DNA of 64,000 bases from Bilabrum cf. latius (taxonomy: Eukaryota): contig OZ237748.1 in assembly GCA_965178125.1 (NCBI GenBank), positions 248,001-312,000 of the forward strand, in the 5' to 3' direction. Shown here piece after piece: positions 4,770-45,649 of this stretch (within the stretch, counting starts at the first letter, position 1; each line of letters begins with the position of its first letter). The translations under genes were made by a program, and so were the position numbers. Below the pieces are notes generated by a model. The model was not told where the DNA came from. It saw nothing but the letters and a program-made list of their open reading frames with translations, and ran no database searches.

Positions 4770-4858
4770 TTGAATTTTAATAATATTAATGATTATTTAA
4801 TATTATAGATTGAGTTTAAAAAGGCTTAAATAATATATTAATTATAGGTATATACAGA

Positions 4859-7017: not shown

Positions 7018-8325
7018 TAAATTAGATTTAAAAATATAGATGTCATAGAATCTTGCCGGAAGGATAAAATGTAAGTGGCGCGATTTTGGAAAAGTCATAT
7101 GTGAAAATCTTACAAGTAAGATAAATGGAAATGAAATTATATTAAGACAATTTGATGAACAGCATAAAGATGGAAAAATTGAATTATCATTTACAACAGA
7201 TTATAAGGCAAACCAAATAATAGATATGCTTAAAGACTTAAGTGAAAAAAGACAGCATATTATCTTAGAACACGCAAAATACCAGCTGAGGCGAAGAAAT
7301 ATAGAACAATAGGAAGAAGCACACGAAGACCGACCAGAAGAAGACCATGACACTCCCGAAAGTGATAATGATTGTAATAGTAATGGCGATGATGATAGCG
7401 AAAATGATAGTAATAGTGATGATGATAGTAATAGTTGAACTCTGCTGCGAATCAATGAGTGCTCCTTCTACATGCCCAATGGCCAAATCACGGACCCGCT
7501 CCCACAGTTGGGGCAGTTCCATAAAAAAAACAAACAGGACGTCCCTGCGCCCGTCCCGCGCCCTCTCCCCCCCACGAGGGACAGTCCGCCCCGAATCGAC
7601 TGGTTCTCCTCAGTCGCGTCTCGCGCATGCTATACCACACTCGCCACAAATGTACACGCTACCCCAATCCTTGCATCGTCTGCGCCTCCAGGCTCGCTCC
7701 GATGCCTCCCCTTCTAGTCCTGCCCCATTCTGATCTGCTGTCTCCCTACGCACCCGTACGTCTCAGCCTTCGCCAGAAATCCTACTGCCTTGTGGTCTGG
7801 CCCCACTCGGCTGCCTCCGCTGCCCCTCCCTCCCCATGGGCCTCCACGCTCCCGAGCCCTACTGGCTTGCTCGGGCCTGTCCGTGCCCCTTCGTCGTCCC
7901 CGCCACGCGTCTGGTTAACCGCGCTCGGGGCATCCCGATCCTCCCCTTTCCTCCGTTCATCTTGGAATCCCCCTCTCCGTCGCCTCCCCCGGTGCCACCC
8001 GACCCCTTGGTGGGCCGCCGCCCGTCCACCCTGTCACCTCCGCCAAGCTCCCCCGTCTGCTCCTGTCCCCCTCTCACCTGGCCCCCTCGCTGTCACCTCC
8101 CGCCGTTGTTGTCCTCCACCTGCACGTGCGCTGCTGCTGTACCCTCCCCGTCGGAGCCCCCATCGCTGTCTCACAGCCCTCAATCCCAATGTCTGATGAC
8201 ACAGATAAGATGATGATAGCGATTGTGATAACAATGACAATAACCAACAACAAGAATCTAGAATTTGTTCTGCTAGATGTCCTAGAATTACAGCTTCTCA
8301 ACTAAGAAGATTACTTTTTGGTTAA
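7010..8325 (+). pseudogene. V1 hypothetical protein with D/N/S-rich tract, interrupted by a solo Ngaro repeat
   Basis: Removing 7436-8208 restores the frame ...DSNS|DDDSDC... to TAA. Confidence 0.7.
7436..8208 (-). mobile_element. Solo A-B terminal-repeat remnant of the Ngaro-B family
   Basis: Near-identical to 39809-40580; starts TGAACTCTG, ends ACACAGATAA; no target-site duplication. Confidence 0.9.
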
Positions 8326-8755: not shown

Positions 8756-8795
8756 ATAATTAATTTATAAATATTAAAACTATTTAATATATATA

Positions 8796-9950
8796 ATGAG
8801 TAAGAGAGGTAGAAAAAAAGAGGATGAGATAAACGATTAGTCATTTGGATTTAATACCAAAAGCTTAACAAAAGATTTAATGAAACCAGTAAAGGAACCA
8901 AAAGGATAGAATTATATAAAATATTATAAACCGACAGAGGCTAATTTAATATAGCAGGCTGATTTACTTTATTTACCTTACGCAACTGATAAGGATTCAA
9001 AATATTTGTTAGTGGTTATAGACACTAGCGGGTTAGGTTTAGATTTTGAGGCTTTAGAGAGTAGAAGCGCGGAAGATATAGTAAAAGCATTTAAAAGGAT
9101 ATATAAAAGGAAGTATTTAAATATTCCAAAAATGATAAGAACGGATAAGGGGGGTGAATTTGATAATGGAGATTTTAGGGAGTATTTAAAGGAGAATAAT
9201 ATAGAACATATTTTTTCAAGAGTGGGTCGTAAATCTTAGATGGCGTTAGTGGAAAGATTAAATGAGGAGATAGGGACAGCGATATTTTATTATTTGAATT
9301 CACAGGAGATAAAAACAGGGACAACGATAACGACTTGGAGGCATTTAATACCAAAGCTGAGGGAGATATTAAATTAGCGTTATAAATCCAGATAGGAAAA
9401 GTTGAATGAGAAAAGGGAGAAATTACCATTTAAACCGCCTAGATGTCAGGGTAATACGTGTGATATATTAAATGAGGGGGAATATGTGAGGATAGCTTAT
9501 GATTATCCTAGAAGTATAGAGGGGATAAAGGAGATTGGAAAGTTTAGAGCGGGTGATATTAAGTATTCTATTAAACCTTATAAGATAGAAAGAGTAATAA
9601 TAAAGCCGGATTACCCACCATTATATAAAATTGAGGATATACCATATACATATTTTAATAGAAATTAGCTATTAATAGCGTCTAAACCATATGATAATAA
9701 AGCTTAGGATATATTTATAATTGAAAAAATAATTAGAAAGAATAAAAATAATACTTACCGTGTTAAATGGAAAGATTCAATTACAGATGAGGCTACAAAG
9801 AATAAATATAAAAAGTAGATAGATAAAATAATAAGAATAATAAAATCAGGAGATGGAGATGTGAAGTATTTGATAAAATGGAAACCTACGACAGAACCGG
9901 CGTCAAATATATCAAAGACAATGAAAGATTTATTTAATAAAAAGAAATGA
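8796..9950 (+). CDS. rve (DDE) integrase with C-terminal chromodomain-like repeats
   Basis: QADLLYL (D), IRTDKGGEF (D), ALVERLN (E); C-terminal IEKII..YRVKWK and IDKII..YLIKWK; continuous only with TAG=Gln. Confidence 0.9.
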
Positions 9951-13467: not shown

Positions 13468-16400
13468 TATCTGATGCTATTCAGTGTCAGTTGGATGTCT
13501 CTTTCAGTCAAGGTTTGGCAAGTCAACAGACATGGCAGTGACAAGGCCGTCCGACGCTTGGTGGAACGGCGCAGTCGCTGCGAAAATCTGCCCAGGGAGT
13601 GGTGGGTGGGTAACAACAAGCAAAGCTCGTGGACCGACCTGTCTCCCTCAGTGTCGAGACAACTCTGGACAAGCAGGAAACTCCGATGAGTGGTCGGTGG
13701 CGCCGCGCAACCGCTCAGCGGAACATGCAAGAGACCCTGATCACAGTGTCGCATCAGAGTCGAACGCTTCGCGTTAGGTATCTGATGCTATTCAGTGTCA
13801 GTTGGATGTCTCTTTCAGTCAAGGTTTGGCAAGTCAACAGACATGGCAGTGACAAGGCCGTCCGACGCTTGGTGGAACGGCGCAGTCGCTGCGAAAATCT
13901 GCCAAATCTGCCAAATCTTGTGTGTTGGTGATGATGTCCAAGGATCGTCCAGATGTCGTTGGATTCATCACGTGAAAGGCGGCTCGGTTGGGACCATGCA
14001 TCGCTGTCTTCATCACTGTCACAGTCGACAGACACAGTCTCATCAGAGCAAGACGCCTTATCGTCGACGAGCACGTTCGGTTTTTGAACATGCGAGGCAC
14101 CTATCTGCATGGCCCTGCAAGGTGCGGTTGCAAGTGCCGTTGATAGCATGTTCGACCTAGCGGCAACCTGAGCATCAGCTGCAGGTGCCGCGGCGTGCAG
14201 CTCCGCAATAGCAGGCTGCTCCATCGTGCCAGCGGCAGCCTGAGCATCAGCTGCAGGTGCCGCGGCGGGCAGCTCCGCAGCAGCGGGCTGCTCCATCTTG
14301 CCAGCGGCAACCTGAGCATCAGCTGCAGGTGCCGCGGCGTGCAGCTCCGCATCCGCGGGCTGCTCCATCTTGCCAGCGGCAACCTGAGCATCAGCTGCAG
14401 GTGCCGCGGCGTGCAGCTCCGCAGCAGCGGGCTGCTCCATCTTGCCAGCGGCAACCTGAGCATCAGCTGCAGGTGCCGCGGCGTGCAGCTCCGCAGCAGC
14501 GGGCTGCTCCATCTTGCCAGCGGCAACCTGAGCATCAGCTGCAGGTGCCGCGGCGTGCAGCTCCGCAGCAGCGGGCTGCTCCGTCTTGCCAGCGGCAACC
14601 TGAGCATCAGCTGCAGGTGCCGCGGCGGGCAGCTCCGCAGCAGCGGGCTGCTCCATCTTGCCAGCGGCAACCTGAGCATCAGCTGCAGGTGCCGCGGCGT
14701 GCAGCTCCGCATCAGCGGGCTGCTCCATCTTGCCAGCGGCAACCTGAGCATCAGCTGCAGGTGCCACGGCGTGCAGCTCCGCAACGGTGGGCTGCGCCAG
14801 CTTGCCAGCGGCAACCTAGGCATCAGCAGTTCGTGCCTCAGGTGTCGGGCCAGGAGGCAAGGAGTCGTGTTGGGCGCGCGATGCGATTCCAAGTGGCCTG
14901 GAAGTCACTATGCTGCGTCGTAGGCGCGGGCAGTATGCGGTGACAGGCACAACATTGCAATGGCGTGCTCCGGGACAGAGCTTGAGCAACGAGCGGGCAT
15001 GCTGAGTCCGCCAACTGTTACCGGTTGGGTGCCGCCTACGGTACGCATCCCATTTGCAACTCGTCAAGACAAATGAAGCAGCGTCCGTGCTACTACCAGC
15101 GGCAACCTGAGCATCAGCTGCAGGTGCCGCGGCGTGCAGCTCCGCATCAGCGGGCTGCTCCATCTTGCCAGCGGCAACCTGAGCATCAGCTGCAGGTGCC
15201 GCGGCGGGCAGCTCCGTAGCAGCGGGCTGCTCCATCTTGCCAGCGGCAACCTGAGCATCAGCTGCAGGTGCCGCGGCGTGCAGCTCCGCATCAGCGGGCT
15301 GCTCCATCTTGCCAGCGGCAACCTGAGCATCAGCTGCAGGTGCCGCGGCGTGCAGCTCCGCATCAGCGGGCTGCTCCATCTTGCCAGCGGCAACCTGAGC
15401 ATCAGCTGCAGGTGCCGCGGCGTGCAGCTCCGCAATAGCAGGCTGCTCCATCGTGCCAGCGGCAGCCTGAGCATCAGCTGCAGGTGCCGCGGCGTGCAGC
15501 TCCGTAGCAGCGGGCTGCTCCATCTTGCCAGCGGCAACCTGAGCATCAGCTGCAGGTGCCGCGGCGTGCAGCTCCGCAGCAGCGGGCTGCTCCATCTTGC
15601 CAGCGGCAACCTGAGCATCAGCTGCAGGTGCCGCGGCGTGCAGCTCCGCATCAGCGGGCTGCTCCATCTTGCCAGCGGCAACCTGAGCATCAGCTGCAGG
15701 TGCCGCGGCGTGCAGCTCCGCATCAGCGGGCTGCTCCATCTTGCCAGCGGCAACCTGAGCATCAGCTGCAGGTGCCGCGGCGTGCAGCTCCGCATCAGCG
15801 GGCTGCTCCATCTTGCCAGCGGCAACCTGAGCATCAGCTGCAGGTGCCGCGGCGTGCAGCTCCGCATCCGCGGGCTGCTCCATCTTGCCAGCGGCAACCT
15901 GAGCATCAGCTGCAGGTGCCGCGGCGTGCAGCTCCGCAGCAGCGGGCTGCTCCATCGTGCCAGCGGCAACCTGAGCATCAGCTGCAGGTGCCGCGGCGTG
16001 CAGCTCCGCAGCAGCGGGCTGCTCCATCTTGCCAGCGGCAACCTGAGCATCAGCTGCAGGTGCCGCGGCGTGCAGCTCCGCAGCAGCGGGCTGCTCCATC
16101 GTGCCAGCGGCAACCTGAGCATCAGCTGCAGGTGCCGCGGCGTGCAGCTCCGCATCAGCGGGCTGCTCCATCGTGCCAGCGGCAACCTGAGCATCAGCTG
16201 CAGGTGCCGCGGCGTGCAGCTCCGCATCCGCGGGCTGCTCCATCTTGCCAGCGGCAACCTGAGCATCAGCTGCAGGTGCCGCGGCATGCAGCTCCGCATC
16301 CGCGGGCTGCTCCATCTTGCCAGCGGCAACCTGAGCATCAGCTGCAGGTGCCGCGGCGTGCAGCTCCGCATCAGCGGGCTGCTCCATCTTGCCAGCGGCA

Positions 16401-16860
16401 ACCTGAGCATCAGCTGCAGGTGCCGCGGCGTGCAGCTCCGCAGCAGCGGGCTGCTCCATCGTGCCAGCGGCAACCTGAGCATCAGCTGCAGGTGCCGCGG
16501 CGTGCAGCTCCGCATCAGCGGGCTGCTCCATCTTGCCAGCGGCAACCTGAGCATCAGCTGCAGGTGCCGCGGCGTGCAGCTCCGCATCAGCGGGCTGCTC
16601 CATCTTGCCAGCGGCAACCTGAGCATCAGCTGCAGGTGCCGCGGCGTGCAGCTCCGCATCAGCGGGCTGCTCCATCTTGCCAGCGGCAACCTGAGCAACA
16701 AGCAAAGCTCGTGGACCGACCTGTCTCCCTCAGTGTCGAGACAACTCTGAACAAGCAGGAAACTCCGATGAGTGGTCGGTGGCGCCGCGCAACCGCTCAG
16801 CGGAACATGCAAGAGACCCTGATCACAGTGTCGCATCAGAGTCGAACGCTTCGCGTTAGG
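13468..16860 (-). mobile_element. Non-autonomous Ngaro-like element (family C)
   Basis: Split direct repeats B 13468-13592 = 13779-13903 and A 13614-13778 = 16696-16860; TATCT present at both ends and at the internal junction; no RT or YR. Confidence 0.85.
14160..16696. repeat. 72-bp tandem repeats in two blocks (~14160-14820, ~15096-16696) encoding ADAQVAAGKMEQPADAELHAAAPA on the minus strand
   Basis: About 9 + 22 near-identical head-to-tail units with no spacers; minus frame 13754-16705 is continuous with TAG=Gln. Confidence 0.95.
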
Positions 16861-18798: not shown

Positions 18799-19323
18799 CA
18801 CAACGCCGACGGCCCAGCCAAGTTCTCCATCCAAGCCGCAGAGCCCATCGCAGTCCATTGCAGAGCCGGACGATGGGCAGTCACAGGCAGCAGGTTCTGC
18901 GGCGTGCGAGCCTTCGTGGCGTGGGCAGCAGCGAGCCACGCCCCAACTGCAGGCGCAGACGAAGACTACGCCCGGTAGCTGGCGCTCAGCTGCCCCACGT
19001 CAGGGCCAGTCTTCGTGGCGAACACGAAGCCGATCGTCAAGGCGCAGGTCGTACGGGCGCTCCGCAGCTTCTGCTCACGAGAAGTTGCAGGAGCGGTGCA
19101 CGGACATTCCATCCGCATCGCGGCAGTGATGTGTTTGGACCGTGCTGGGGTCGCCTTCGAGGTCATTAGGCGATTCGGCAGATGGAAGTCGGCATCTGCA
19201 TGCGAGGTGTACTTGCGGGGCGTCAGGGAAGGCTTGCCTCCTCTGGAGCTCGGCGGCAGGAGCCTCGATTTGAACAGGCCAGTGTGGGTGCTGGCCAGCG
19301 CGCTGCGGCTGAACTTGGAGTGA
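18799..19323 (+). pseudogene. C-terminal fragment of tyrosine recombinase
   Basis: RFCGVR, GHSIRI, GRWKS, EVYLR motifs; N-terminal catalytic Arg region missing. Confidence 0.85.
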
Positions 19324-21150
19324 GCCACACAGCCGCAGCGTACAAGACATGGCGGTAAGATTTGGCGGAGTAGTGCACGTGCTCTTCCCAGCCCCGGTCA
19401 GTCCGGTCAAGGGTCGCGCACAGGCACAGCTTTGTCAGGTCTTGCCATGTCTGATTGTTAACGAGACTAGGTTGCGCGTACACTCTGGCATCATGATCCT
19501 AACGCCGGATGGGGTTCGGTGTTGATGCCAGAGTGGGAGCGCGTGAACGTCTCGTTGGGTTCCGATGGCGGTTGCGACCGGGAAGGTGCGACCAAGCCAA
19601 CGGATTGCTTGCGATGACGCGCATACCCTCTCTGTGTTCAGGAGAGGGGCGGAGATTGGGTAATTTTTGCCCACCCTCCCAACCCCCTCCTCCTCGGCGG
19701 AGTAGTGCACGTGCTCTTCCCAGCCCCGGTCAGTCCGGTCAAGGGTCGCGCACAGGCACAGCTTTGTCAGGTCTTGCCATGTCTGATTGTTAACGAGACT
19801 AGGTTGCGCGTACACTCTGGCATCAAAAGAAAAAATGGCTTATTATAAAAAAATGAAATTAGAATTTAAATATAAAAAAATTAAACTAATGAGAGAAAAC
19901 CCCTTAGATGTTGTTATTGAAGCCGAACGTAAAATAGAGGGATTAAAACCCGATAAAGATTTAATAGAAAAAGGTTTTAAATTAAATGTTGAATTTTTCA
20001 AAAAATTAACCGCTGAACCTAATTTATTTATTGTAGATGATTACGAAGGTTTTAAAAAAAGGAACCAGAAGGCAAAGGCTTATTTTTTATTGGAAATCCT
20101 AGCAACTACAGGGAGGCACACAGCAAGTAGTGTTTTAGACATCGCCCACAAAATAAGCGACGGTATGAAAACAAGAACCATAATGAACGAAATAACCACC
20201 CATATTATTTATAAAACAATCACCGCGACCAGTTTAAAATATATATTAGAAACTGTCTTAAATTTTGATGCTCCTACTAGAAAAAGAATTAAAAAAACCC
20301 TTCATTCTCTCCCTCTATTTGGTTATGTTGCTATTGAACTCTGCTGCGAATCAATGAGTGCTCCTTCTACATGCCCAATGGCCAAATCACGGATCCACTC
20401 CCACAGTTGGAGTAGTTCCATAAAAAAAAGAAAAGATGCCCCCCCTTCCCTGGGACAGTCCGCCCCGAATCGACTGAGCCGCTCAGTCTCGTCTCGCGCA
20501 TGCTAAACCACACTCGTCACTAATGTACACGTTACCTCTGTTCTTGCACCGTCCGCGCCTCCAGGCTCGCCCCGGTGCCTCCCTGTCTATTCCAACCCCA
20601 TTCTGATCTGCTGTCACCCCCGCGCCCTTGCGTGTCAGCCCTCGTCAGAAATCCTGCTGCCTCGTGGTCTGGATCCACTTGGCTGCGCCCGCTTCCCCTC
20701 CCTACCCGATGGGCCTCCACGCTCCCGAGCCCGCTGGCTTGCTCGGGCCTGTCAGTGCCCCTTCGTCGTCCCCGCCACGCGCCTGGTACCGCGCTCAGGG
20801 CCTCCCTTCCTCCCTATCCTCCGTTCATCTTGGAATCCTTCTCCTCTCCTCGGCCTTGCCCTCCTCGGCCGACCTCGCCCCTGTTGCCCGTCGCCTCCTC
20901 CACCCCCCACCCCCACCCCACCCGCCCTGTCCTGGCCCGTTTCCCTCCTCCTTCCGTCGCTGCTGTCCTCCCCCTGCCTGCACCCTACCGCTTTATCCCT
21001 CCCCAGCGGAGCCCTCACTGCCGTCTCACAGACCTCAATCCCAATGTCTTGACGACACAGATAATGAACTCTGCTGCGAATCAATGAGTGCTCCTTCTAC
21101 ATGCCCAATGGCCAAATCACGGATCCACTCCCACAGTTGGAGTAGTTCCA

Positions 21151-22314
21151 TTACTTTCCAATACTTGCAGCAGTTGCGGCGTGGTCCAGCGCGGCCGTCC
21201 ACACCCGTGTCGGCTGCGTGAGGTCGACCGAGGCGGCCAGGGGCAGCGGGCGCAACGCGAAGATGCTCTCGTTCCGGTACCGGCGGGCCGCGGCCAGTGT
21301 CTTCCAGGCCCCTGCGCGCATGATCGTGTCGTCCGAGCATCCCTGCCTGCTCAGCGTGGTGATGGCCGTGACGCGCAAGGAGTGCCCCGACAGGCGCAGC
21401 TCGGGCCGGCCGCAGCAGCGACGAAGCTCCGCAATGACGGTTGTGGCTCCACATTGCGCTGGTGCGAACAGGTACGCTGGTCCGGTTGCCGGGCGGTGCT
21501 CGAGGAAACGGCGCAGAGTCGCCACCGATGCGATGCCATGTGCTGCCCGCAAGTACTCGAGCAGGATGCGGACGCCGCAGAACCGGGCGCCATGCGGCTG
21601 CCCGCCCACGTACCGCACCGGACTTGCGCTGCTGAGCATCAGGGAGCGCGTGTCCCGCGACTTGTTCGGGCCCAACAGGATCTCGATGGAAGTGACAGCG
21701 CCGTCCGAGTCCACGCCCACGACCAGGTGGCCCCGGGCCATCCCGCGCTGTTCGTCACCCACGGTCGCCTGAGCGATCTCGCCTAAGCGGGCCGCGCTGA
21801 AGAACGCCACGGCTGCTGCCGTGCGGGCGGCGTGTGCCTGGCTACCCCGAGGTTGCGCAGTGAACCACACTGCGAGGCGCTGCAGCTCGGCAGGAGGTTT
21901 GCGTCCGGAGGCCCCTTTGGCTGCCACTGGGCCCCCTGGTGCCGCAGCTCTGGCCATGTGGGTGGCGAAGTACGACAGCAGCGAGCGCAGCCGCTTGGAT
22001 TGACCACCCGGCAGGCCGTGCAGCACGACGAATGCCCTGAAGACGTTGCTGACGTAGGAACGCAGAGTTGGTCCCCCAATCGAGCCGGAGCGGTCCTCGC
22101 CGCGCCAGACGGCGTACCGGCAACATGCGATGTCGAGCGCCCGCTGTGCCCTCAATGGGTCCTCGTAGCCTGCGCATGGGTCTTCGTCGTCCCCCCGGGC
22201 GCGACGGAATTGCTCGAATCCGCGGAGGGCTGAAGCCCCTGAAGCCAAACCCTTAGCTCCACCGCCCGAGAGCGCCCGAACCGTTGCATACATGTCCAGA
22301 TCCACCGCGGACAC
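21151..22314 (-). CDS. Ngaro-A tyrosine recombinase (ORF3; start uncertain)
   Basis: AARLGEI, GHSLRV, GAWK, RRY catalytic motifs; overlaps the 3' end of ORF2. Confidence 0.92.
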   Translation of the reverse strand: MSAVDLDMYATVRALSGGGAKGLASGASALRGFEQFRRARGDDEDPCAGYEDPLRAQRALDIACCRYAVWRGEDRSGSIGGPTLRSYVSNVFRAFVVLHGLPGGQSKRLRSLLSYFATHMARAAAPGGPVAAKGASGRKPPAELQRLAVWFTAQPRGSQAHAARTAAAVAFFSAARLGEIAQATVGDEQRGMARGHLVVGVDSDGAVTSIEILLGPNKSRDTRSLMLSSASPVRYVGGQPHGARFCGVRILLEYLRAAHGIASVATLRRFLEHRPATGPAYLFAPAQCGATTVIAELRRCCGRPELRLSGHSLRVTAITTLSRQGCSDDTIMRAGAWKTLAAARRYRNESIFALRPLPLAASVDLTQPTRVWTAALDHAATAASIGK

Positions 22315-25300
22315 CGCACCCGCTCCACCGTCTCGCCCCAGCGGAGGTAGCGGCGATGCGAGAAGTTCCGAGAGAGAGCGTCTGCCACAAAGTTGGCCTT
22401 GCTGCTCACGTGCTGCGAGAAGAGCTGAAAGTCATGGCGTGTCACGGTAGTGAACAACGGCCCCAACAGTCTGTTGAGGCACAAGCGACGCGCGGAGCCC
22501 TTGCGGACAGACGTACACACAGGCAAATTGTCCCCGTACACGGTCACATTCCGGCCAGCCAGCTCCGGCGCCCACCGCTGCACCAGGAGCACCACAGCCG
22601 CCAGTTCTGCCTGAGGCATCTGACTGGGACCCACGGGCCGTGGCCAGAAGCCCTGGACCAGGCGCCGGCCCCGATGACGATCAGCAGGAGTGCCGTAGAG
22701 CTATAGCGTGCCCCCAAATCCGTCCTTGCTAGCGTCCACGTACAGCACAGCCCGCGGCCCCCTGTGAGGAGACGTTGGGAAACGACGTGAGCGATTGGCT
22801 TGCACACTAGCTCGCAGCGTTCGCAGGGTGTCGAGGATTGGCCTGTCGAGGTGATGAGGTCCGCCCCGTAGCGGCATCCGATGCTGGGCACACTGCAGTA
22901 GCCCAAGCTGGGGCTTCAGGCACACCAGAGCGCCCGCTGCGAACCCCAGCTCCCCGATGACCGACTTGAACTCCAACGACGTGGCGACCGACCCGGCCGC
23001 GATGATGGATGTCAAGCGCGCCACCAGGGCCTCTTGCTTGGCCTGCGGGAGGGAAATTCGCATGGCAGCGAGGTCCAACTCGTAGCCGAGGTAGGTGAGT
23101 ACTGAGCGAGGACGCTCCCCGCGCGCCTTTGACCGCGAGATGGGAAATCCCAAGTACTCAGCCTCCGACATGAGCTGGGCCGTCAGCCATGGAGCTCGGG
23201 GCGCGGCGGCAAGAAGCAGCTGGTCGTCGCTGAAGACAGTCGTTGCACACGGTGCTCTCGAGGGCGTGAAGCTGCTGCGCTCGCGAAACCGGCGGTTAAA
23301 GGCAGTGCTGGTGAGGCAGGCCCACCCAGGCGAGGACGCCGAGCCCATGCTGAGAACGGCGTAGAGAGCCGCTCGGTCCCCCGTCTTGGACCACATGTGA
23401 CACGCGTCCTCCAGCCGAAGCTTGAGCGAAAAGAACCACTTGGAGAAGTCGATGGCGGCGCCATGCATGGCCACGCCCGCCGGGAGCCGGCGGCGGAACC
23501 GCACCGCCGCTTTCATGACCACGGTGATGTCGTCGAGCAAGCATGGCGTGTACTGTCGATAGTCCACGAAGCCGTTCACGCCCTTCCCCCTTGAGGAACT
23601 CACGCGAGCGGACGCGTCCACAATGGCACGAAACTGCCCCGCCGCCTTCTTGGCGATGTAGCTGGTGAACGAGATGCGTGAAGGCGGCACGTCGTGCGTA
23701 TCCAAGGGCACGATCCAGCCCGCACGAACAGCGGCGCCATGCGCCAGCTCTGCATGTATACGAGTGGCTGCATCCGAGTAGCGTGTCTGTTCCACCGTCA
23801 CGTCACGTGGGCTGCCCGCGCCGGGGTCGGTGCATAGTGGGAACCCGTACCGGATGCCAGCCAAGGCTGCCTCGTACAGCGAGAGCGCCTGCCAAGCGAC
23901 TGGCCCCTGAGGCTCGGGTGTAGGACAGCGCACGCCAAAGAAGGACTCCAGACGACGCAGGCGGGCATCGGTGCAGCGGGGCCCCCTCACGCAACCGCGG
24001 GCGACAGCCACATCGGCGAGTGGAGAGAGGAGCAGTCGGTGCCTGGCAAACTCGGCGGCAGGTGCCGATGACACACGCCGCAGTGGAGCAGAAGTGAAGT
24101 CAGCCAGGCGGGTGGAGGGGACGTCCTCGGCTGTCCGTGCCAATGGCAGTGGCGGCTCTGCAGCGGTGGTGTGCGACGTCCGTTGCAGCACACGAGGGAG
24201 CACGCATCTCCGCCACCGGGCCCGATCACGGCGGGCCTGTTCCTGCACGGACGGATCCAGCAGGGCCGGGACTGGCTTAAGTCGGCGGGAAGAGTCAGCG
24301 ATGGATGCAGAGAGACCAGCAGCCGTGAGAAGGGAAGCTGACTCAGGGATGGCCATGCAGGTGGTGGCGAGGTCGTCTGCCCCAGCCGCTGCCGCACCCG
24401 CTGCCTCCTCGCTGACCTGCTCTGCCTCCACGCCTGCCACGCACACTGCCTCCTCGCTGACCTGCTCGGCCGCCACGCCTGCCACGCACACTGCCTCCTC
24501 GCTGACCTGCGCTGCCTCCACGCCTGCCACGCACACTGCCTCCTCGCTGACCTGCTCTGTCGCCACGCCTGCCACGCACACTGCCTCCTCGCTGACCTGC
24601 TCTATCGCCACGCCTGCCACGCACACTGCCTCCTCGCTGACCTGCTCTGTCACCACGCCTGCCACGCACACTGCCTCCTCGCTGACCTGCTCTGTCGCCA
24701 CGCCTGCCACGCACCCTGCCTCCTCGCTGACCTGCTCTGTCGCCACGCCTGCCACGCACACTGCCTCCTCGCTGACCTGCTCTGTCGCCACGCCTGCCAC
24801 GCACACTGCCTCCTCGCTGACCTGCTCTGTCACCACGCCTGCCACGCACACTGCCTCCTCGCTGACCTGCTCTGCCGCCACGCCTGCCTCGCGCCCTGCC
24901 TCCTCGCTGACCTGCTCTGCCTCCACGCCTGCCACGCACACTGTCTCCTCGCTGACCTGCGCTGCCTCCACGCCATCCACGCACACTGTCTCCTCGCTGA
25001 CCTGCTCTGCCGCCACGCCTGCCACGCACACTGCCTCCTCGCTGACCTGCTCTGCCTCCACGCCTGCCACGCACACTGCCTCCTCGCTGACCTGCTCTGC
25101 CTCCACGCCTGCCACGCGCACTGCCTCCGCGCTGACCGGCGCTGCCTCCACGCCTGCCACGCACACTGCCGCCGCGCGGACCTGCTCGGCCGCCACCGCA
25201 GCCGCACGTAAGGCCGCCGGCGTGGCCGGTGCTGCCGTCACAGCTGCCGCAGGCCCGGGCGCCTCCGTGACAGGCGCCGCCTCCGCCGTGTCCACAGCGC

Positions 25301-26309
25301 CAACTGCACGCCCGCACTGACCGGCCCGCTGGGCACGCGACCACAACGGTGGCATTTTCCAAGATGACCAGGAGCGCCCCCGACAGTGGGACGCATGGGG
25401 GCGGCGTGGCGGCCTATAGGGCCGCCGCCGCACCTCAGCCCCGCCAAGCTGAGGTCTACAGATCTGCCCGGTGGGCAGACTGGGTCCCTCCTTCCCTCCA
25501 GCCCCCTCCTCCGTGGGAGCCAGAGTGAGCTTCGCCTCTCCAGTGAGGCTAGCTGCCGTGAATCGCAACGAGGCACTGTCAGGTGCCTGCTGCAGGGGAA
25601 TCGATCCTGTCACTCCCCAAGCCGCGTCCCGCAGTGCAGCCTCCTCCAAGTGCTGCCTGCCGGGCCCCCAGCCCGCCGCTGTGGCCCTCCAGTTCCAAGT
25701 GACCGGTGCTGCCGACCACTGTGTCGATTCCCCCCCCCAACTGCCCCCCCAGCTCCACGCCGGTCCCCACGACCGACGGCCCGGCCACCCCCCCCCACCC
25801 ACGCTCCACCGCAGGTCTCCCCACGGAGTGGCCGAGGCCCCCCACCACCGGAGCGCTGCCGCACCCAGGACGGGGAGACGGCCACCAGGCCGCCCCCCCC
25901 GCCCAGCTACGACTGGCGCCCCCCCGGGCCGCCGCGTCACCGTCCCCTCCGGCACCGTCCTCGTGGCGTCCCCCCGCTGCCCCCCCGCCGCCATCACTGC
26001 CCTGCCATGCACAACTCCCGCAGCGCCGGCCGCCCCCACCCCGGCAACCCCGAGCACCGCGTCCTCTGGCCGCGCCCCACCCGCAACCGCCCGCACCTCC
26101 GCCTCCGCCATGCCTCTTCCCGCAGCCGCCGACCCTCGCGCCCCTCCCCCGGTTCCCACCGCAACCACGACGTCCTCCTCCACCCCCCCCGTCCTCCAAG
26201 CCGCCGCCCCGCGGCGGATGCTGACGCGCTTCCCGCGCCTGCATCGCCTCCGGTGACGGCGGGCAAGGCCACGCCGAGCATGAGTGCCCAGCGCGGCCCC
26301 CTTGGCTAG
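22152..26309 (-). CDS. Ngaro-A ORF2: repeat region, reverse transcriptase and RNase H
   Basis: [33 protein letters not shown]; RNase H YVDAS, AELAAV, YGDN, ADALSR; TAG at 22701 aligns with Gln in Ngaro-B; in frame with ORF1. Confidence 0.92.
24400..25200. repeat. 45-bp tandem repeat in ORF2 ([15 protein letters not shown])
   Basis: About 17 units visible. Confidence 0.9.
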
Positions 26310-26312
26310 TCA
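26267..26312 (-). promoter_or_regulatory. Putative stop-codon readthrough signal: UGA-CUAG plus stem-loop
   Basis: TGA CTAGCCAAGGG GGCCGCGCTGGGCA CTCA TGCTCGGCGTGGCC: 14-bp stem including G-U pairs; conserved in Ngaro-B. Confidence 0.75.
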
Positions 26313-28289
26313 GTCGCCAAAGATGGACCGCCAGTCGCGGTCGAGGTTGGGGGTGCCGTCTGCCCGGCGCCGCGACGTGCCGGGTTCGGCATCGATGTCG
26401 GCCACGCGCCGCATGCACTCGACCAGCAGACCGGGAGTCCCGTGCACCGTGGAGAAGGGGGCCAGGAGGCGCGTGAGGTCCGTGGACGGCAACGCCGCGG
26501 AGGCAGGATCGCGCCACCAGCGACTGCCCGCCGCCCACTCCGCACAGCTTCGGAGCCGATCTCCCGCCCGCAGCACATTTTGGCCGGGGGTGAGCTCCGT
26601 GCTCGCCGCGGTGTCGAACACCCAGCACATCACCTGCTCTGGCACCGAGGCCGCCTGCCCCGTGGGAGTGGTGGTCCCGATGGTTGCAACCATCCTGGCC
26701 AGGGCGCGTGATCGTGTCCACAGCTCTGCCACCGTGCCAAGGTCCGGCATGACCAGGTCTCGGGTAGGGCCGGCGCCCGGCTGGGAGGCGTGGCCGATGA
26801 GGGTGCGCCGCATCGCCAGGGCTTGACAGGACCGGTGCAGCCAGATGGACTGCACCACCGCCGCGAGCCGGCTCGCGCCCCTGCCCGGCCCGGTCCGCAG
26901 CAACCCAATGGTTGCGAATGGCTCTCTGCGCTGCAGCGAGGCCTGCAGGGCGGTCACCGCGGTGACAAAGGAAGCCAGGGCGGCCTTGCCCGCTGCCGGG
27001 GCCTTCAGTGCCCGCACAGCCGCCTTACCACCGCAGATCGCGTCCACCATGGTAGCCAGCACGTCGGAGAAGGTGGCGGGGCATCGCAGAGGCTCCAGGG
27101 TGAGCAGCTTCAGGTCATGTTCCAAGGCCATTCGGAGGAAGGCGCGAACCCCCTCCCGCACGAGGAGGCTGTCCGGGGCAGGGGCCGAGCCTGTCGCGTC
27201 AATCATAGCCGCAGTCGCGTGGGCGAAGGAGGTGCCTGGGGTGGAGCTCGAGGAGGCAGGGGGCAGACCAGCCGTGACCGAGTACAGGGGGGGGGCAGCG
27301 TCGGTTGCAACCGTCTCACCGGGGGGAGCGGCCGCCGTGGGCCGGGGGAATGCGGTGGATTCTCCCATGGCCACGAGAAGCGGCAGGACTGCGCCGCCCT
27401 CCAGTGGGCGTGTGCGGTACAGGTCCACGCTCTTCCTAGCCAGCTCCTTGACTGCGTCCTGCGGGGCCAGTGCCGCGAGCATGTGGAGTAGACCGAGCGG
27501 GGAGGATGCGCTGGCCGCGTACTTGAGCCCGCGAAGGATGACCTCAGCCCAGAGCGCCGGAGCTGCCACCTGCAGCCTGGCCTAGATACGGCTGGCTGCC
27601 TCTGCGAAGGTGGCACGATGAACGTCGGGAATTGCCGGCAAAGGTCCGCACAGCTCGGGCAGCGCGCTCACATGGATGGACTGCAAGAAGTCCACCAGGA
27701 GGGCGCACGCGTTGGCCAGCACGGAGCGAAGTGGGCCGCGCCCAATCGCAGAACCCCCAGAATGGCCCAGAGCTGCAGCCTCGTCGTCGTCGGCTTGTCC
27801 CAGAGGGATCCCGGCCAGTGATGCGGCATCAGCACCCGTGGCGGCCTCCTCGGCCAGCTGCATGTCCTTGCAGGCGGAATCGAGCTTCGTGGACAGCTTG
27901 GGGAAGTTCGTGTTAGTCACAATCAAAAATGCTGTGATGTAATCACGAATCACTTGCTGTAAGCGTTCGAATTCGGCAGGTCCTAGGCGATCGGGATTGA
28001 TAGGTGCGAGCGCCACGGTGAGGTCCTCCAGTCGGCGCTGAGTCCATTCCGGCGCGCGAAGGCATCGAGGCGTGGCGTCCCCAGAAGACGTATTTGGTCG
28101 ACCAGCAGGTGATGCAGCCGCACCAGATGCGTCGTCCATCGCCTCTTGCAGCCAGGCCACCGTGAATGGTCCCTCTAAGGATTTCGTCGGCGCCAAGATT
28201 AGACGTAAGGCCTCACCAGCGCGTCCGCGGCGCAGCGCAACTTTGACCGGAACGATATACTCAGAGAATCCTGTGGCTGCAGAGGCCAT
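26310..28289 (-). CDS. Ngaro-A ORF1 (gag-like by position)
   Basis: ATG just inside A1; one internal TAG; ends SIFGD-TGA; homologous to 45650-47632. Confidence 0.8.
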
Positions 28290-28968
28290 AGCTGCGGGAC
28301 AGTCCGCCCCGAATCGACTGAGCCGCTCAGTCTCGTCTCGCGCATGCTAAACCACACTCGTCACTAATGTACACGTTACCTCTGTTCTTGCACCGTCCGC
28401 GCCTCCAGGCTCGCCCCGGTGCCTCCCTGTCTATTCCAACCCCATTCTGATCTGCTGTCACCCCCGCGCCCTTGCGTGTCAGCCCTCGTCAGAAATCCTG
28501 CTGCCTCGTGGTCTGGATCCACTTGGCTGCGCCCGCTTCCCCTCCCTACCCGATGGGCCTCCACGCTCCCGAGCCCGCTGGCTTGCTCGGGCCTGTCAGT
28601 GCCCCTTCGTCGTCCCCGCCACGCGCCTGGTACCGCGCTCAGGGCCTCCCTTCCTCCCTATCCTCCGTTCATCTTGGAATCCTTCTCCTCTCCTCGGCCT
28701 TGCCCTCCTCGGCCGACCTCGCCCCTGTTGCCCGTCGCCTCCTCCACCCCCCACCCCCACCCCACCCGCCCTGTCCTGGCCCGTTTCCCTCCTCCTTCCG
28801 TCGCTGCTGTCCTCCCCCTGCCTGCACCCTACCGCTTTATCCCTCCCCAGCGGAGCCCTCACTGCCGTCTCACAGACCTCAATCCCAATGTCTTGACGAC
28901 ACAGATAATAATGTAGATAACAATTATGTAGTTAGCACAAAAAAAATATTTCTCTATTGAATATATAA

Positions 28969-29544
28969 ATGAACATTAACGACTTAAACCAAATTGTTAA
29001 AACCCCTTTATCTCCTTTAGAAATACAAAAATTAGGATTACATAATTTAAAGTATAAACCCCGAATTGTTATTTATGACGACATAATTAAAAATACAGCC
29101 TCTATAAATGATATCTTTTTAGGCTATGACGGCGTAATTATTTATTATCCAAATAAAAAAACAGGCATTCATTCAACATATGGTCATTATACAGCCCTTA
29201 CTAAAGACCAGAAGAGAAAAACAATCTATTTTTTTGATAGCTACGGCGAAAAACCCGACCAATAGAAACCATTAATGAATAGAGACGAATTATATGAAGG
29301 CGAAGGAGAAGAAAATACTTTAGTTAAATATTTATTGAATCAAAAATTAGACGGCTGGACAATAGATTATAATAATAAACCTATTTAGAGTTATGCGAAT
29401 GAAAGCGCTACTTGTGGAAGATGGGCATTATTAAGAACCGCTTTCTCTACATTAACAAATGATCAGTTCGTGGATGATATGTTTAAAATATCGTAGCAAA
29501 TGTCCCTTAGTCCCGATCAACTAGTAGCCCTAATTTTACATTGA
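28969..29544 (+). CDS. Adenain/Ulp1-like virion maturation cysteine protease
   Basis: GHYTAL (H), FFDSYG (D), I*SYANESATCGRW (Q, C); the oxyanion Gln is TAG at 29386. Confidence 0.92.
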
Positions 29545-29882: not shown

Positions 29883-30833
29883 ATGAGTTTTAGCGATGAA
29901 TACGTGAGATTGAATATAGTTAGTTCAACCGTCCCCCACAATTAGATGAGATAGGCGGTTGTAAATGAAACACGTGAAAATTTAATTTTAAGTCAGAGTG
30001 AGAATTATTTAACGGCAGTTGAAGAGATGGATTTAAATAAATTTTTGCTTCCATTATATAAGCCAGAATATCAAGATAGTAGCGGTAAAACCTACCTAAA
30101 ATTTACTTTAGAAAATAGAACATCAAGTGCTAAATTAGGAGATTATATAACTATTGCTAGCAAACCACAATTTTATTATTCTTATTAGGATATCGTAAAT
30201 GATTTTAATCAAGAATTAATAAGAATTTGTGGTCTTGTGTCCATACCTTCGTAGGATATACCAAAATTAAAATTTGAAAATAATAAATGGAGCCTAGCAA
30301 CAACTGCTAATTTTAGAGATAATTATTTTTTATATTTAAATTTTGAAGCTTTCGCTTTGTTTGATAAGTTTGAGTATGAAGGAATAAGCCCAACCCCTAA
30401 TGATTTATTCGCTAGACTTAGTTATAATAATGTAGATGTAGGAGATTATATTTTTATGGCTAGACAGACTAATTTAAATTCTTGGTGTCCTGTTAAATCT
30501 ATTATTGTAGAAAGTGATATCCCAGTTAATAAAGAACTCGTGACCACCAAATCATCAACCGGCGGGTCTATTGCGGTCAACAAATCACCAGTTTTAACCA
30601 GCTACCCATATAACCCGAATGATAGCTCCCCGTTAGAGAATATAATTTATGTATCAAATCCTTATCGTTGGTATTCAATGATGAAAGACAGAAGCTTTAA
30701 GAGTGTATCAATGTCATTTTATTGGGTGGATAAATAGAATGAGAAATACCCTATAATGAATTATAACGGGGGAGAGGCTCATATTAAATAGGTATTTAAG
30801 AAATAGACCGATAATCTGAGTTCAGATTTATAA
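29883..30833 (+). CDS. Minor capsid protein (penton)
   Basis: 316 aa between protease and MCP; VKSIIVESDIPV..E and LTSY..YRW motifs; homolog at 62199. Confidence 0.75.
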
Positions 30834-30906
30834 ATTAATTATAGAAGTAGATAAAATAAGTTTAGATATAAAATTTTTTATATCTATAGTGTATATATAA
30901 AAAAAA

Positions 30907-32778
30907 ATGGCTCAACAAATGGTTTAGAATTTACCAGTAAGCGTTAAGGCTCCTAAAAGCCTTCAAATGATAACCCCCGAAGATGCTAGTTTAGGGACAG
31001 AACTAGGCGTTCAAAAATACACCCGCCGAGAAATTAGGCCATCATCTAATCAGTCTAACTCTCTTCTTCCCCTTTCGTTCCCCGTTAATCCTACTAGTAA
31101 AACCGTATCTAGATTTATTCGTCTTCGTCATCGTATGACAGTTAGGCTTCAACTTGAAGAAGCAGTCGCGGATGGTAATGATGCTTGGGCGTATCTTCAA
31201 TCTAGATTCGGAACGAATTCATTACCTACTTTTAAGATGATTCAAAATGGTGTTTTAACAATTAATGGATAGCCTTTTACAGTAAAAGTTTATGAATGGG
31301 CGGAACCTACGGAAGTTATGAACAGTGAAGAAACCTTATCCACAATCTCACCTGTTGGACGACCGGATACTGTAGCAGATTATCTTGAAGTAAGTGATTC
31401 ACTCAAGAATCCTTTAGCTTGGGGTTAGGATGTTGGATATAGTGCCGGTGATAGCTTTAGTTATCGTGGAGCATATGGAAATGCTTTTAAGACTGTAAGT
31501 GCTGATTTTGTCGCGGATAATAGAAATCAAATTGATTGGACTATTGATTTTCAAGAAGCTATACCACTTAAAGGGGCTGATGTTGACGTGAATGCTAAAT
31601 ATTTCACCGGTGTAAGAAGCCTTCAAGTTGATTTAGATTATCACGTAAACGCCATTCAAAGACTGTGTAAGGCTAGTTTTACCAAAGATAACGGTTCTAT
31701 TAATAAAATAACGGCTTAGTCAATTGTAGGAGAAACAAACACGACCCTTTTAGTTGATGAGGTTGAATTTTAGAGTGGATACGCCCCCCCTACTCGTTGT
31801 TTGTATAATATGCCTACAATTAAATTTTAGTCTTAGGCGCCTGTCCCTGTAGCTAAATCTACCAGTGAAAAAGACTTAACTTCTTTTGATTATCAATTAT
31901 CCCGTGAAAATGGTATTCCTAGTGCTGTTATGGTATGTGCCCGCCTTGTTGGTTGTGATGATAACCCTAACTGGGCTAATAGAACTTTACCTATTAGAAG
32001 AATAGGTTTCTCACTAAATGGAAGTGCTGAGGAATTAGGAGCCGTAGATAATCCACACGAATTATATAGAATTAGTAGGAAAAACGGATATGCTCTCCCT
32101 CCTTCATCCTTTTATGGTTCATCAATTGATGGAAGTGATGGAAACCGCGGAACTGGTTGCTATATGATTTTAAAACCTTCAGATGTTGCTACTCTTGCCG
32201 GTGTTCAATCCAATGTAAATACTGGATTTAATCTTAAAGTTAATCTTCAATGCTTTAACCCTTACAACAAGTATTCAACAACTGCTGATGAGGATAAATA
32301 CGAGATAAAAGTATGGATGTTTTATGATAATGTTCTTGTGAATGATAACGGCGTCTATACTGAAGCTGGCGCCCTTATTGAGCCTTCTAAAGTGCTATCT
32401 GAACTTTCTAAACGTGGTGATGCTGAAAGTGGTTCTAAAGGTTTCAAACCTGTATTTGAGGATTTAGATAATTACGCTAATGTGATGGGTGGTAAAGGTC
32501 GTTTCTGGTCTAAGATTGGACGGGCTTTTTCAAATGGATGGGATAAGGCTAAAGATTGGGTAAAAAGTGCGTAGGCTAAGAATCTAGCTAAACAAATAAG
32601 AAATAGTGAATTACTTAGTGGAGTTGCTGGAGATAGTAGCCTTGTCGGTAAAGCGGCTTCACACTTTGGGTATGGAAAGAGCGGTGGAGAATTAAACAGA
32701 ATCGGGGGTAAATTGTAGGCTCGTGGAGGTGCCGCGATGAAGAGCTCAGATTTAGAAGCTTTACTGTCAACGTCTTAA
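30907..32778 (+). CDS. Virophage-type major capsid protein
   Basis: 623 aa with TAG=Gln; ELYRISRKNG motif, beta-rich; C-terminal MGG site followed by an amphipathic helix; position after penton. Confidence 0.82.
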
Positions 32779-33732: not shown

Positions 33733-34710
33733 ATGAACGGAGTAAAAAATCCTAAATAGTTAAAATTATTAGAAAAACACGATTCTAATATTATTACTAA
33801 AATTGACGGTGTGGATGTTATAATCATTACAAATGAAGAAGAAGTTAGAGATATAACTAAGGAATTAAAAACACGAAATAAAATGTAGCTGCTGTCGTTA
33901 ATCTTTTCAACTTATAACTGTATCATCTAGAAGGTAAATAAATTCAGAGATGAAGATAAAACTAAACAAACAGGACGTCCCTGCGCCCGTCCCGCGCCCT
34001 CTCCCCCCCACGAGGGACAGTCCGCCCCGAATCGACTGGTTCTCCTCAGTCGCGTCTCGCGCATGCTATACCACACTCGCCACAAATGTACACGCTACCC
34101 CAATCCTTGCATCGTCTGCGCCTCCAGGCTCGCTCCGATGCCTCCCCTTCTAGTCCTGCCCCATTCTGATCTGCTGTCTCCCTACGCACCCGTACGTCTC
34201 AGCCTTCGCCAGAAATCCTACTGCCTTGTGGTCTGGCCCCACCCGGCTGCCTCCGCTGCCCCTCCCTCCCCATGGGCCTCCACGCTCCCGAGCCCTACTG
34301 GCTTGCTCGGGCCTGTCCGTGCCCCTTCGTCGTCCCCGCCACGCGTCTGGTTAACCGCGCTCGGGGCATCCCGATCCTCCCCTTTCCTCCGTTCATCTTG
34401 GAATCCCCCTCTCCGTCGCCTCCCCCGGTGCCACCCGACCCCTTGGTGGGCCGCCGCCCGTCCACCCTGTCACCTCCGCCAAGCTCCCCCGTCTGCTCCT
34501 GTCCCCCTCTCACCTGGCCCCCTCGCTGTCATCTCCCGCCGTTGTTGTCCTCCACCTGCACGTGCGCTGCTGCTGTACCCTCCCCGTCGGAGCCCCCATC
34601 GCTGTCTCACAGCCCTCAATCCCAATGTCTGATGACACAGATAAGTAATATATTATGTGGCTAAATGTTTATTAGAAGGAGAACCCATAAAGATACATAG
34701 ATTAAAATAA
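33733..34710 (+). pseudogene. Hypothetical protein interrupted by a truncated solo Ngaro-B repeat
   Basis: Rejoins as DKTK|VIYYVAK; paralog of 34761-35021. Confidence 0.65.
33964..34644 (-). mobile_element. Solo Ngaro-B A repeat plus spacer (B repeat lost)
   Basis: Near-identical to ~39900-40580. Confidence 0.9.
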
Positions 34711-44800: not shown

Positions 44801-45649
44801 CTGTACGACCGCCCCCGCACCTCAGCCCCTCCGTGCCGAGGTCTACAGATCTGCCCGGTGGGCAGACTGGGTCCCTCCTTCCCTCCCGCCCCATCCTCCG
44901 TTGGGGCACGAGTGAGCTTCGCCTCTCCAGTGAGGCTAGCTGCCGCAAATTGCAACGAGGCACCCGAGGGCACCTGCTGCGCGGGAGTCGATCCTGTCAC
45001 TCCCCAAGCCGCGTCCTGCAGTGCAGCATCCTCCCCGTGCTGCCCGCCGAGCCCCCAGCCCCCCGCTGTGGCCCTCCCATTCCACGTGACCGGTGCTGCC
45101 GGCCACCACGTCGATCCAAATGTCAAACTGCCCCCCCCAGCCCCAGGTCTGTCCCCACGGACCCTGCCCAGGCCATCCCCCCCATCGCCAGCACCCACCG
45201 GCGCCATCCCCCGCAGGGGCTGCACCCCCCCACGGTGCACCCCACGGAGATGGCCAGCCGCGACCCCACCGGCGCGCGGCTGCACCCAGGACGGGGAGAC
45301 GGCCACATGGCCGCCACCCCGCCGCCCGTGCATCCCGCGTGCGCCCTGCCACCCGCTCCACCGGCGCCCCGTCAGCGCACCCCATCATCTCGCCGTCCGC
45401 CGCCCCCCCGGCGGCCCTCCGCACCTCGCTGCCCGCCCGCACCACCACCGCTGCCGCCGGTCCCGCCGCCACCCCGGCGTCCATCCCCCCCGCCCCTGCC
45501 GCCCGCGACGCCCGCGCCCTCACCGCCACCTCCCCGGCCGCCGCCGCCACCCGGCGGATGCCAGCGCCCGTCCTACTCCGGCATCGCCTCTGGTGGCGAC
45601 GGCGGAGGCCGTGCCGAGCGTGAACACCCAGCGCGGCCCCCTTGGCTAG
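41668..45649 (-). CDS. Ngaro-B ORF2 RT/RNase H, with an apparent 1-nt frameshift at the C8 run 45131-45138
   Basis: Same RT/RNase H motifs as family A; homology switches frame at WGWGG|SLTFG. Confidence 0.85.
43963..44620. repeat. 51-bp tandem repeat in ORF2 (GGGVESRQEIVEDGVSR)
   Basis: About 13 units. Confidence 0.9.

Follow-up and report, generated by a model that had tools for sequence, protein, structure and literature searches.

Introduction

Readthrough of a UGA codon that is followed by CUA or CGG and, after a spacer of 7–9 nucleotides (nt), by a stem has been described as one class of recoding signal (PMC3159437), and the heptamer UGA-CUAG occurs in mammalian genes and in alphaviruses (PMC4132726). 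Here, we analyse a stretch of 64,000 nt of DNA from Bilabrum cf. latius (GenBank assembly GCA_965178125.1, contig OZ237748.1, positions 248,001–312,000 of the forward strand; hereafter the window, in whose own numbering all positions are given), which contains two related retroelements with the repeat layout of Ngaro tyrosine-recombinase (YR) retrotransposons: copy A (28909–20332) and copy B (48268–~39809), both on the minus strand. In both copies the first open reading frame (ORF1) ends in UGA-CUAG, two stem-loops follow the stop, and the reverse transcriptase (RT) and RNase H are encoded downstream in ORF2. Readthrough of the ORF1 stop to give an ORF1–ORF2 fusion is, on the sequence evidence, the best single explanation of this arrangement, and we lean slightly towards accepting it.

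The alphavirus and plant-virus signals, as described by Firth et al. (2011; PMC3159437), resemble the present signal in that UGA is followed by CUA, a stem of at least 12 base pairs (bp) starts 7–9 nt past the stop, conservation is raised over about 100–150 nt 3′ of the stop and a polymerase lies downstream in frame. The signal reported here, which is known from sequence alone, differs in residing in a YR retrotransposon of a protist-like genome in which UAG is a sense codon, in consisting of two adjacent local hairpins instead of one long-range stem, and in being followed by 370 codons that would form an unconstrained G-rich linker. The vertebrate readthrough genes OPRL1, OPRK1, AQP4, MAPK10 and MDH1 (Loughran et al., 2014; PMC4132726) carry the identical UGA-CUAG heptamer; the extensions described there are mostly short (13 residues in MAPK10) and mostly without a required 3′ structure, whereas the extension in the Ngaro element would comprise about 1385 codons and carry enzymatic domains. 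Murine leukaemia virus likewise makes a fusion polymerase by readthrough of the gag stop, with a structure 8 nt downstream, but the signal described in that case is UAG plus a compact pseudoknot (PMC3159437), whereas in the Ngaro element the stop is UGA, UAG is sense and no protease domain was found. Since the stop is UGA, the signal does not belong to the gammaretroviral type.

Tca2 of Candida albicans also has gag and pol in one frame with a UGA between them and a predicted 3′ structure; it is, however, a long-terminal-repeat element, the junction of which, in the account given in PMC2194720, held a minor promoter and alone gave no readthrough in yeast, and it serves here as a warning and not as a confirming model. 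The virophage-inserted Ngaros of Cafeteria burkhardae (Hackl et al., 2021; PMC8547959) share with the present elements the GC-rich A1-[ORFs]-B1A2B2 organization, ORF1, RT/RNase H and the tyrosine recombinase, as well as a location in virophage-like, AT-rich DNA and the proximity of solo AB repeats. The Cafeteria elements, 80 in number, are described as being about 6 kb in length and of four types, whereas the elements described here are 8.5 kb in length, contain tandem arrays and use TAG as sense; the main text of that paper contains no occurrence of the phrase 'genetic code' and mentions neither a variant code nor an ORF1–ORF2 recoding signal.

A search of literature titles and abstracts, with subscription journals outside its scope, found no link of Ngaro, DIRS or tyrosine-recombinase retrotransposons to stop-codon readthrough, and we know of no account of how tyrosine-recombinase retrotransposons set the ratio of structural protein to enzyme. 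If readthrough does operate here, the Ngaro signal would belong to an already known class of recoding signal, and a device of alphaviruses, plant viruses, vertebrate genes and retroviruses would be extended to another retroelement order. Its presence in a protist-like genome without a UAG stop would then be a natural test of how such signals adapt to a changed set of stops, and ORF1 and ORF2 of such elements would have to be annotated as one gene product and not as two.

Stop context and stem-loops downstream of ORF1

Around the ORF1 stop of copy A the sense strand reads UUU GGC GAC UGA CUA GCC AAG, after which a hairpin begins, and GAC-UGA-CUAG is common to both copies. The preliminary description of this DNA had placed TGA-CTAG at both ORF1 ends, and it is indeed found there on the minus strand at 26312–26306 (with CTAG at 26309–26306) and 45652–45646. 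The heptamer is not enriched in the window, with three occurrences versus 5.3 expected, two of the three being the ORF1 stops. The same description had reported a hairpin with a 4-nt loop downstream of the stop; such a hairpin (stem-loop 1; SL1) is present 9 nt past the stop in copy A and 8 nt past it in copy B, although the stem of copy B is interrupted, with 8 + 8 bp flanking one C·A mismatch and a UUCA loop. A second stem-loop (SL2) follows SL1 after a gap of 2–3 nt in both copies (Table 1).

The folding z-scores were −3.0 (copy A) and −3.05 (copy B) for SL1 and −4.6 and −3.9, respectively, for SL1 and SL2 together. In a stem search, SL1 was the longest uninterrupted stem in the sense RNA (8578 nt) of copy A. 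The antisense RNA contained only one stem of at least 11 bp; the structure therefore belongs to the sense transcript, the strand specificity of SL1 being due to its five G·U pairs. In an energy scan with 44-nt windows, SL1 ranked second by stability among 2845 (copy A) and 2806 (copy B) windows. The folds predicted after the stop contained nested hairpins only, in calculations that included no dedicated pseudoknot search, and the loop of SL1, with its 4 nt, is too small for a loop-based pseudoknot. Positions 20000–29200 gave no match to Rfam at E ≤ 1.

Conservation and covariation of the signal were scored from the two related copies (n = 2). Although the signal had been described as occurring in 'both families', the nucleotide identity of copies A and B (75% in the 5′ half and 84.6% in the 3′ half) identifies them as two diverged copies of one family and not as independent families; both carry the signal. 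None of the 12 columns of the stop and the short spacer is variable, and an identical run of 29 nt spans 26315–26287, whereas neighbouring third codon positions differ at 36%. Variable columns amount to 11 of 72 in the stems and to 12 of 28 in loops and unpaired positions (Fisher p = 0.007), and ten of the 11 stem changes retain pairing. Among the 36 pairs, one shows a double-sided change, eight show one-sided changes that are still paired and one is broken in copy B; SL2 accounts for 20 consensus pairs, five with one-sided changes and none broken. The compensatory change from CA/UG to UG/CG that had been reported near the loop is real, with A-U replaced by G-C in a double-sided change at the loop-closing pair, but its other component, C-G to U-G, is one-sided. 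The analysis of fold and covariation that had been proposed, run on the two copies, thus gave a stable fold (z about −3) and an uninformative shuffle control (261/500): with only two sequences such a control cannot discriminate, and the covariation is therefore suggestive only.

The stem-loops could alternatively be cis-acting RNA or DNA elements unrelated to translation, involved for example in packaging, dimerisation, template switching during reverse transcription or 3′-end formation of an ORF1-only message, or they could be a by-product of the extreme G+C content, with a fortuitous UGA-CUAG. Such a view is consistent with the density of stable folds across the whole region between the stop and the tandem array, with the lack of an Rfam family match and with the absence of TGACTAG enrichment in the window. 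The stems, however, are more conserved than the loops and keep their pairing through changes, the structure is confined to the sense RNA, the stop context and short spacer are invariant against the divergence at neighbouring third positions, and the expression of the RT would be left unexplained. We regard this alternative as improbable.

Two further routes past the stop were considered. A −1 frameshift at SL1 was rejected, as the sequence before SL1 contains no slippery heptamer and the two ORFs already lie in one frame, and splicing out of the stop was set aside, as inspection by eye revealed no convincing donor just upstream.

Reading frame from ORF1 into the reverse transcriptase

The preliminary description stated that ORF2 continues in the same frame directly after the TGA, which holds for copy A but not for copy B. 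In copy A the ORF1 frame is open from 26309 to a TGA at 22154, a length of about 1385 codons with one sense TAG, and contains the RT and RNase H in frame. From the stop to the tandem array it runs for 371 codons without TGA, TAA or TAG, whereas the other two frames of this stretch contain four and two TGA/TAA triplets; 3.6% of dinucleotide shuffles were stop-free [P(0) = 0.036]. The codon-usage total of the through frame is −0.5 versus −61 and −41 for the other frames (P about 0.006), an advantage that is partly another expression of the lack of stop codons. After the TGA of copy B the frame is open for 275 codons (with TAG read as glutamine), and the RT lies in the +1 frame relative to ORF1. 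The favoured frame of copy B switches at a run of eight G residues (P about 0.02 before the run and about 0.07 after it). No other break separates the frames of ORF1 and the RT in copy B, which has no further frameshift in ORF1, in the RT–RNase H region or in ORF3.

A one-base slip in a formerly continuous frame, either by mutation in the older copy or as a homopolymer error, could give the pattern of copy B. Copy A is taken to be young because its A1 and A2 repeats are 100% identical across 614 nt (B1 also matches B2); in copy B the A1/A2 repeats are 98.4% identical and B1/B2 are 100% identical. The net length differences between conserved anchors of the two copies are −81, +33, +1 and −6, three of the four being multiples of three; this, like the tandem-array periods of 45 and 51 nt, counts in favour of readthrough.

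The shared frame of copy A might itself be an assembly accident across nine G-runs of 6–9 nt, in which case the true arrangement might need a frameshift. The sole frame difference between the copies is indeed a G7/G8 homopolymer, and substitutions and indels are reported in PMC8547959 for long-read assemblies of such regions; however, frame 0 of copy A passes every G-run without any stop triplet, neither of the other two frames equals it in codon usage, and no slippery site precedes SL1. An accident of this kind therefore appears highly improbable.

In the mechanism that we favour, a fraction of the ribosomes on Ngaro RNA would not terminate at the UGA of ORF1 but decode it as sense, helped by the CUAG that follows and by the stem-loop pair SL1–SL2, which begins 8–9 nt downstream. 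Without a change of frame, these ribosomes would then translate a G-rich linker under little constraint and the acidic tandem repeats before reaching the RT and RNase H. The product would be a low-abundance ORF1–ORF2 fusion, made at a ratio set in a Gag-Pol-like manner. The motif, its spacing, the hairpins with their conservation and the shared open frame of copy A with coding-like codon usage are directly observed; from them we infer that readthrough occurs, with stimulation by the hairpins, and that the functional source of RT is the fusion. Readthrough is favoured because it jointly explains the UGA-CUAG context, the invariant spacer of canonical length and the top-ranked, strand-specific and conserved stem-loop, and because the young copy A shares an open frame while the phase of the post-stop region is coding-like in both copies.

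Table 1. Positions of features of the two Ngaro copies and of TAG-using genes in the window
Feature	Position	Strand	Description or basis
ORF1, copy A	26313..28289	−	659 residues from ATG 28289; upstream ATG 28445 would give 711 residues
ORF1 stop UGA, copy A	26310..26312	−	Closes 659-codon ORF
CUAG and short spacer, copy A	26301..26309	−	CUAGCCAAG; invariant between A and B
SL1, copy A	26265..26300	−	16 consecutive bp including 5 G·U, 4-nt loop CUCA, 9 nt past stop
SL2, copy A	26201..26262	−	Second hairpin, about 62 nt, immediately 3′ of SL1
Signal, copy B	UGA 45652-45650, CUAG 45649-45646, SL1 45641-45604, SL2 45600-45543	−	Sequence and folding
G-rich structured post-stop spacer, copy A	25197..26200	−	ORF1 frame without TGA/TAA/TAG; in-frame ATGs 26111, 25355
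Conserved block in post-stop spacer	25380..25740 (copy B 44767-45127)	−	82% identity; identical runs of 49, 36 and 29 nt
G8 run, copy B	45131..45138	−	G7 in copy A from 25750; coding-like frame shifts from ORF1 frame to RT frame (+1)
Tandem array, copy A	24401..25196	−	45 nt × 17.7, ORF2 frame, strongly coding-like codon usage
Constrained part of ORF2, copy A	22155..24329	−	Pre-RT, reverse transcriptase, RNase H; one in-frame TAG at 22703
ORF3 tyrosine recombinase, copy A	21151..22431	−	−1 frame, overlaps ORF2 end; Phage_integrase 29.1 bits
Repeats, copy A	A1 28296-28909, A2 20452-21065, B1 21062-21151, B2 20332-20421	−	Repeat comparison
In-frame TAG in Ngaro ORFs, examples	27584, 22703, 46912, 46414, 45922	−	ORF reading
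TAG-using genes in AT-rich DNA, examples	8778-9947, 50998-52650	+	ORF reading

The post-stop spacer and possible separate initiation of ORF2

The region between SL2 and the tandem array (the post-stop spacer, extending over about 1.1 kb from the stop) provides most of the evidence that weighs against readthrough. Post-stop substitutions show no third-position bias (0.16–0.25 at all three positions), and the ratio of nonsynonymous to synonymous divergence (dN/dS) is 0.50 over the first 36 post-stop codons and 0.67 over a conserved block of 360 nt, compared with 0.06–0.14 in ORF1 and the RT. The G content of the spacer is 46–47% (32–33% in coding parts), it contains nine (copy A) and six (copy B) G-runs of 6–9 nt (0–2 in genes) and three (copy A) and five (copy B) G-quadruplex (G4) motifs (none in four coding regions), and seven of the eight most stable local folds of copy A lie within it; in a spacer so dense in structure, a hairpin near the stop is less improbable than the rank of SL1 suggests. 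To this are added the +1 frame of the RT in copy B, a covariation that is anecdotal, with one double-sided and one broken pair in two related copies, and the presence of in-frame ATGs (26111 in copy A and 45484 in copy B, as well as 25355 in copy A) at which ORF2 could start independently. Among the precedents, Ngaro variants without ORF1 are described as persisting in Cafeteria burkhardae host DNA (PMC8547959), and the gag-UGA-pol junction of Tca2, as reported, shows that simple readthrough does not follow from such a signature by itself (PMC2194720). The earlier proposal of programmed readthrough in a YR retrotransposon is supported in part by the Ngaro layout, the UGA-CUAG, the hairpin and the frame of copy A, but is weakened by the frame of copy B, the lack of constraint in the spacer and the thin covariation.

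Synonymous divergence in the spacer is depressed (0.27–0.39 versus 0.65–1.15 in the genes), and this, together with the equal change at the three codon positions, indicates that the spacer is constrained as nucleic acid; if translated, it would be a loosely constrained linker. The 360-nt block is more conserved than ORF1, has no codon periodicity and contains several predicted hairpins (z −3.4) with three double-sided changes; internal ribosome entry, promoter and packaging elements are candidates for its role. The most stable 44-nt fold of each element is another hairpin of the spacer, conserved between the copies and located about 400 nt past the stop (25863–25906 in copy A and 45285–45328 in copy B, minus strand; −35.4 and −33.0 kcal/mol, respectively).

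The main rival to readthrough is that ORF2 is a separate cistron, with termination at the UGA and a start of its own at a spacer AUG (26111 in copy A and 45484 in copy B, or 25355 in copy A), reached by reinitiation, as used by bicistronic long interspersed nuclear elements (LINEs), by internal ribosome entry within the structured, G-rich stretch of RNA or on a subgenomic RNA transcribed from a promoter inside the element. The role of SL1, SL2 and the conserved block would then lie in this initiation or in the packaging or stability of the RNA, and ORF1 and ORF2 would share a frame by coincidence. ATG-started ORFs of 1319 residues (copy A, from 26111) and 1221 residues (copy B, from 45333, in the RT frame) are available, and the in-frame ATGs at 26111 and 45484 lie 165–198 nt past the stop and 58–89 nt beyond SL2. 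The absence of protein-level constraint in the spacer, together with the conservation of its synonymous sites, would suit such a cistron, as would the multiple hairpins and double-sided changes of the block at 25740–25380. Strong coding potential returns only near 25350, adjoining the ATG at 25355 in copy A; on this view copy B would not have to be a defective element; and the Tca2 junction promoter (PMC2194720) and the ORF1-less Cafeteria Ngaros (PMC8547959), as described, provide precedents.

Separate initiation nevertheless needs three coincidences: that the two ORFs share a frame (a chance of 1 in 3), that CUAG follows the stop (roughly 0.003 by our own estimate at the base composition) and that a top-ranked hairpin lies at exactly 8–9 nt. 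The candidate ATGs are not clearly homologous, that at 25355 in copy A being TTG in copy B and the alignment around 26111/45484 being poor, and immediately before the RT domain the copies have no conserved ATG. The codon usage of the through frame is ORF1-like just past SL2 in both copies, and reinitiation after an ORF of 659 codons would require a special mechanism. Weighing both sides, we judge separate initiation of ORF2 to be unlikely, though well within consideration.

ORF2, ORF3 and the classification of the element

The split direct repeats of both copies are ordered A1-[ORFs]-B1-A2-B2, which is the Ngaro layout, and both copies encode a tyrosine recombinase (Phage_integrase, 29.1 and 28.6 bits against a Pfam cutoff of 27.1), supporting the assignment of the element as a tyrosine-recombinase retrotransposon with this layout. 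No Pfam match to an rve integrase was found within the ORFs of the Ngaro element. The matches to RVT_1 (16.3 bits in copy A and 24.8 bits in copy B against 29.6) and RT_RNaseH (21.9 bits against 24.8) fall below the curated Pfam cutoffs. The pre-RT region and the RT core show dN/dS values of 0.09 and 0.06, respectively, and an excess of third-position changes between the copies, so that purifying selection on this part of ORF2 is strong. Substitutions in ORF1 are likewise biased to the third codon position, with a dN/dS of 0.14 over the last 120 codons.

ORF1 is an orphan protein, for which the label 'Gag-like' rests on position only. Protein searches with ORF1 and with the RT–RNase H part found no relative at E ≤ 0.001 among the best 8000 candidates, scans of bacterial and archaeal contigs with the ORF1 and RT alignments found no relatives, and comparison of ORF1 with a protein atlas gave sub-threshold leads only (best 0.87). 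The post-UGA ORF of 1200 residues had 108 matches among representative proteins, its close relatives (88–95% identity) being fragments of 102–290 residues from the RT–RNase H part. Residues 1–275, which correspond to the spacer, contained the best-scoring stretch of none of the 108 matches; matches from about residue 276 overlap the end of the spacer into the array.

The tandem arrays of copies A and B encode acidic repeats on the N-terminal side of ORF2, that of copy B (43958–44623, minus strand) having a period of 51 nt and 13.1 copies. A third array (14159–16697; period 72 nt, 35.2 copies) lies in a separate GC-rich island. The three arrays are unrelated, and their periods of 45, 51 and 72 nt are all multiples of three.

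The region of overlap between ORF2 and ORF3 (22155–22483, minus strand) begins at the longest runs of identity between the two copies (55 and 38 nt). Copy B has no counterpart of the ATG (22293) that comes first in ORF3 of copy A, and no slippery heptamer (X XXY YYZ) was found in the overlap. A fuller scheme of serial recoding on one RNA can be envisaged, in which UGA-CUAG readthrough would be followed by a non-canonical shift into the ORF3 frame, which lacks a conserved AUG, with the spacer acting both as linker and as structured cis-acting RNA and with UAG read as glutamine. This scheme as a whole is doubtful; if it is correct, the DIRS/Ngaro order would gain its first described recoding programme.

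Genetic code of the window

The preliminary description held that UAG is unavailable as a leaky stop in this host, which was borne out, TAG being found in frame as sense in both the Ngaro genes and the genes of the AT-rich DNA. The in-frame stop triplets inside ORF1, ORF2 and ORF3 of both copies are all TAG, with no TGA and no TAA, and at the eight TAG sites the opposite copy has CAG or CAA in six cases and ACC and CGG in the other two. The virophage-like genes are rich in in-frame TAG, with nine in an integrase of 390 codons and 12 in another of 564 codons. ORFs of the AT-rich DNA terminate in TAA (22 of 30) or TGA (8 of 30), and TGA never occurs in frame within long ORFs. TAG is therefore a sense codon here, in what would be a reassignment restricted to UAG and most likely to glutamine, and UAG could not act as a leaky stop. 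No tRNA gene, including one for a UAG-reading tRNA, was found in the window. A reading of UGA as selenocysteine or as a sense codon was rejected, as UGA terminates ordinary ORFs.

Setting of the Ngaro copies

The window is a mosaic of AT-rich DNA (about 30% G+C) alternating with islands of 65–71% G+C, two of which are the Ngaro copies. Another GC-rich island contains a third, distant tyrosine-recombinase-like stretch (18886–19305, plus strand) with 32% identity to the Ngaro recombinase over 140 residues. The AT-rich DNA around the Ngaros is virophage-like or polinton-like (29883–32778, 8778–9947, 50998–52650, 59506–60570 and 4820–5800, all on the plus strand). It encodes a homologue of the Sputnik V18/19 penton (E = 5.6e-9), with an adjoining ORF that weakly matches the major capsid protein V20, two rve integrases with chromodomains, an AAA-like ATPase (below the cutoff) and a DUF285 repeat protein (E = 5e-94). 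Both Ngaros are inserted in this virophage-like DNA, as are solo AB-type repeats at 7436–8227 and 34014–34652, which share about 79% identity with the A repeat of copy A and have no internal genes between them.

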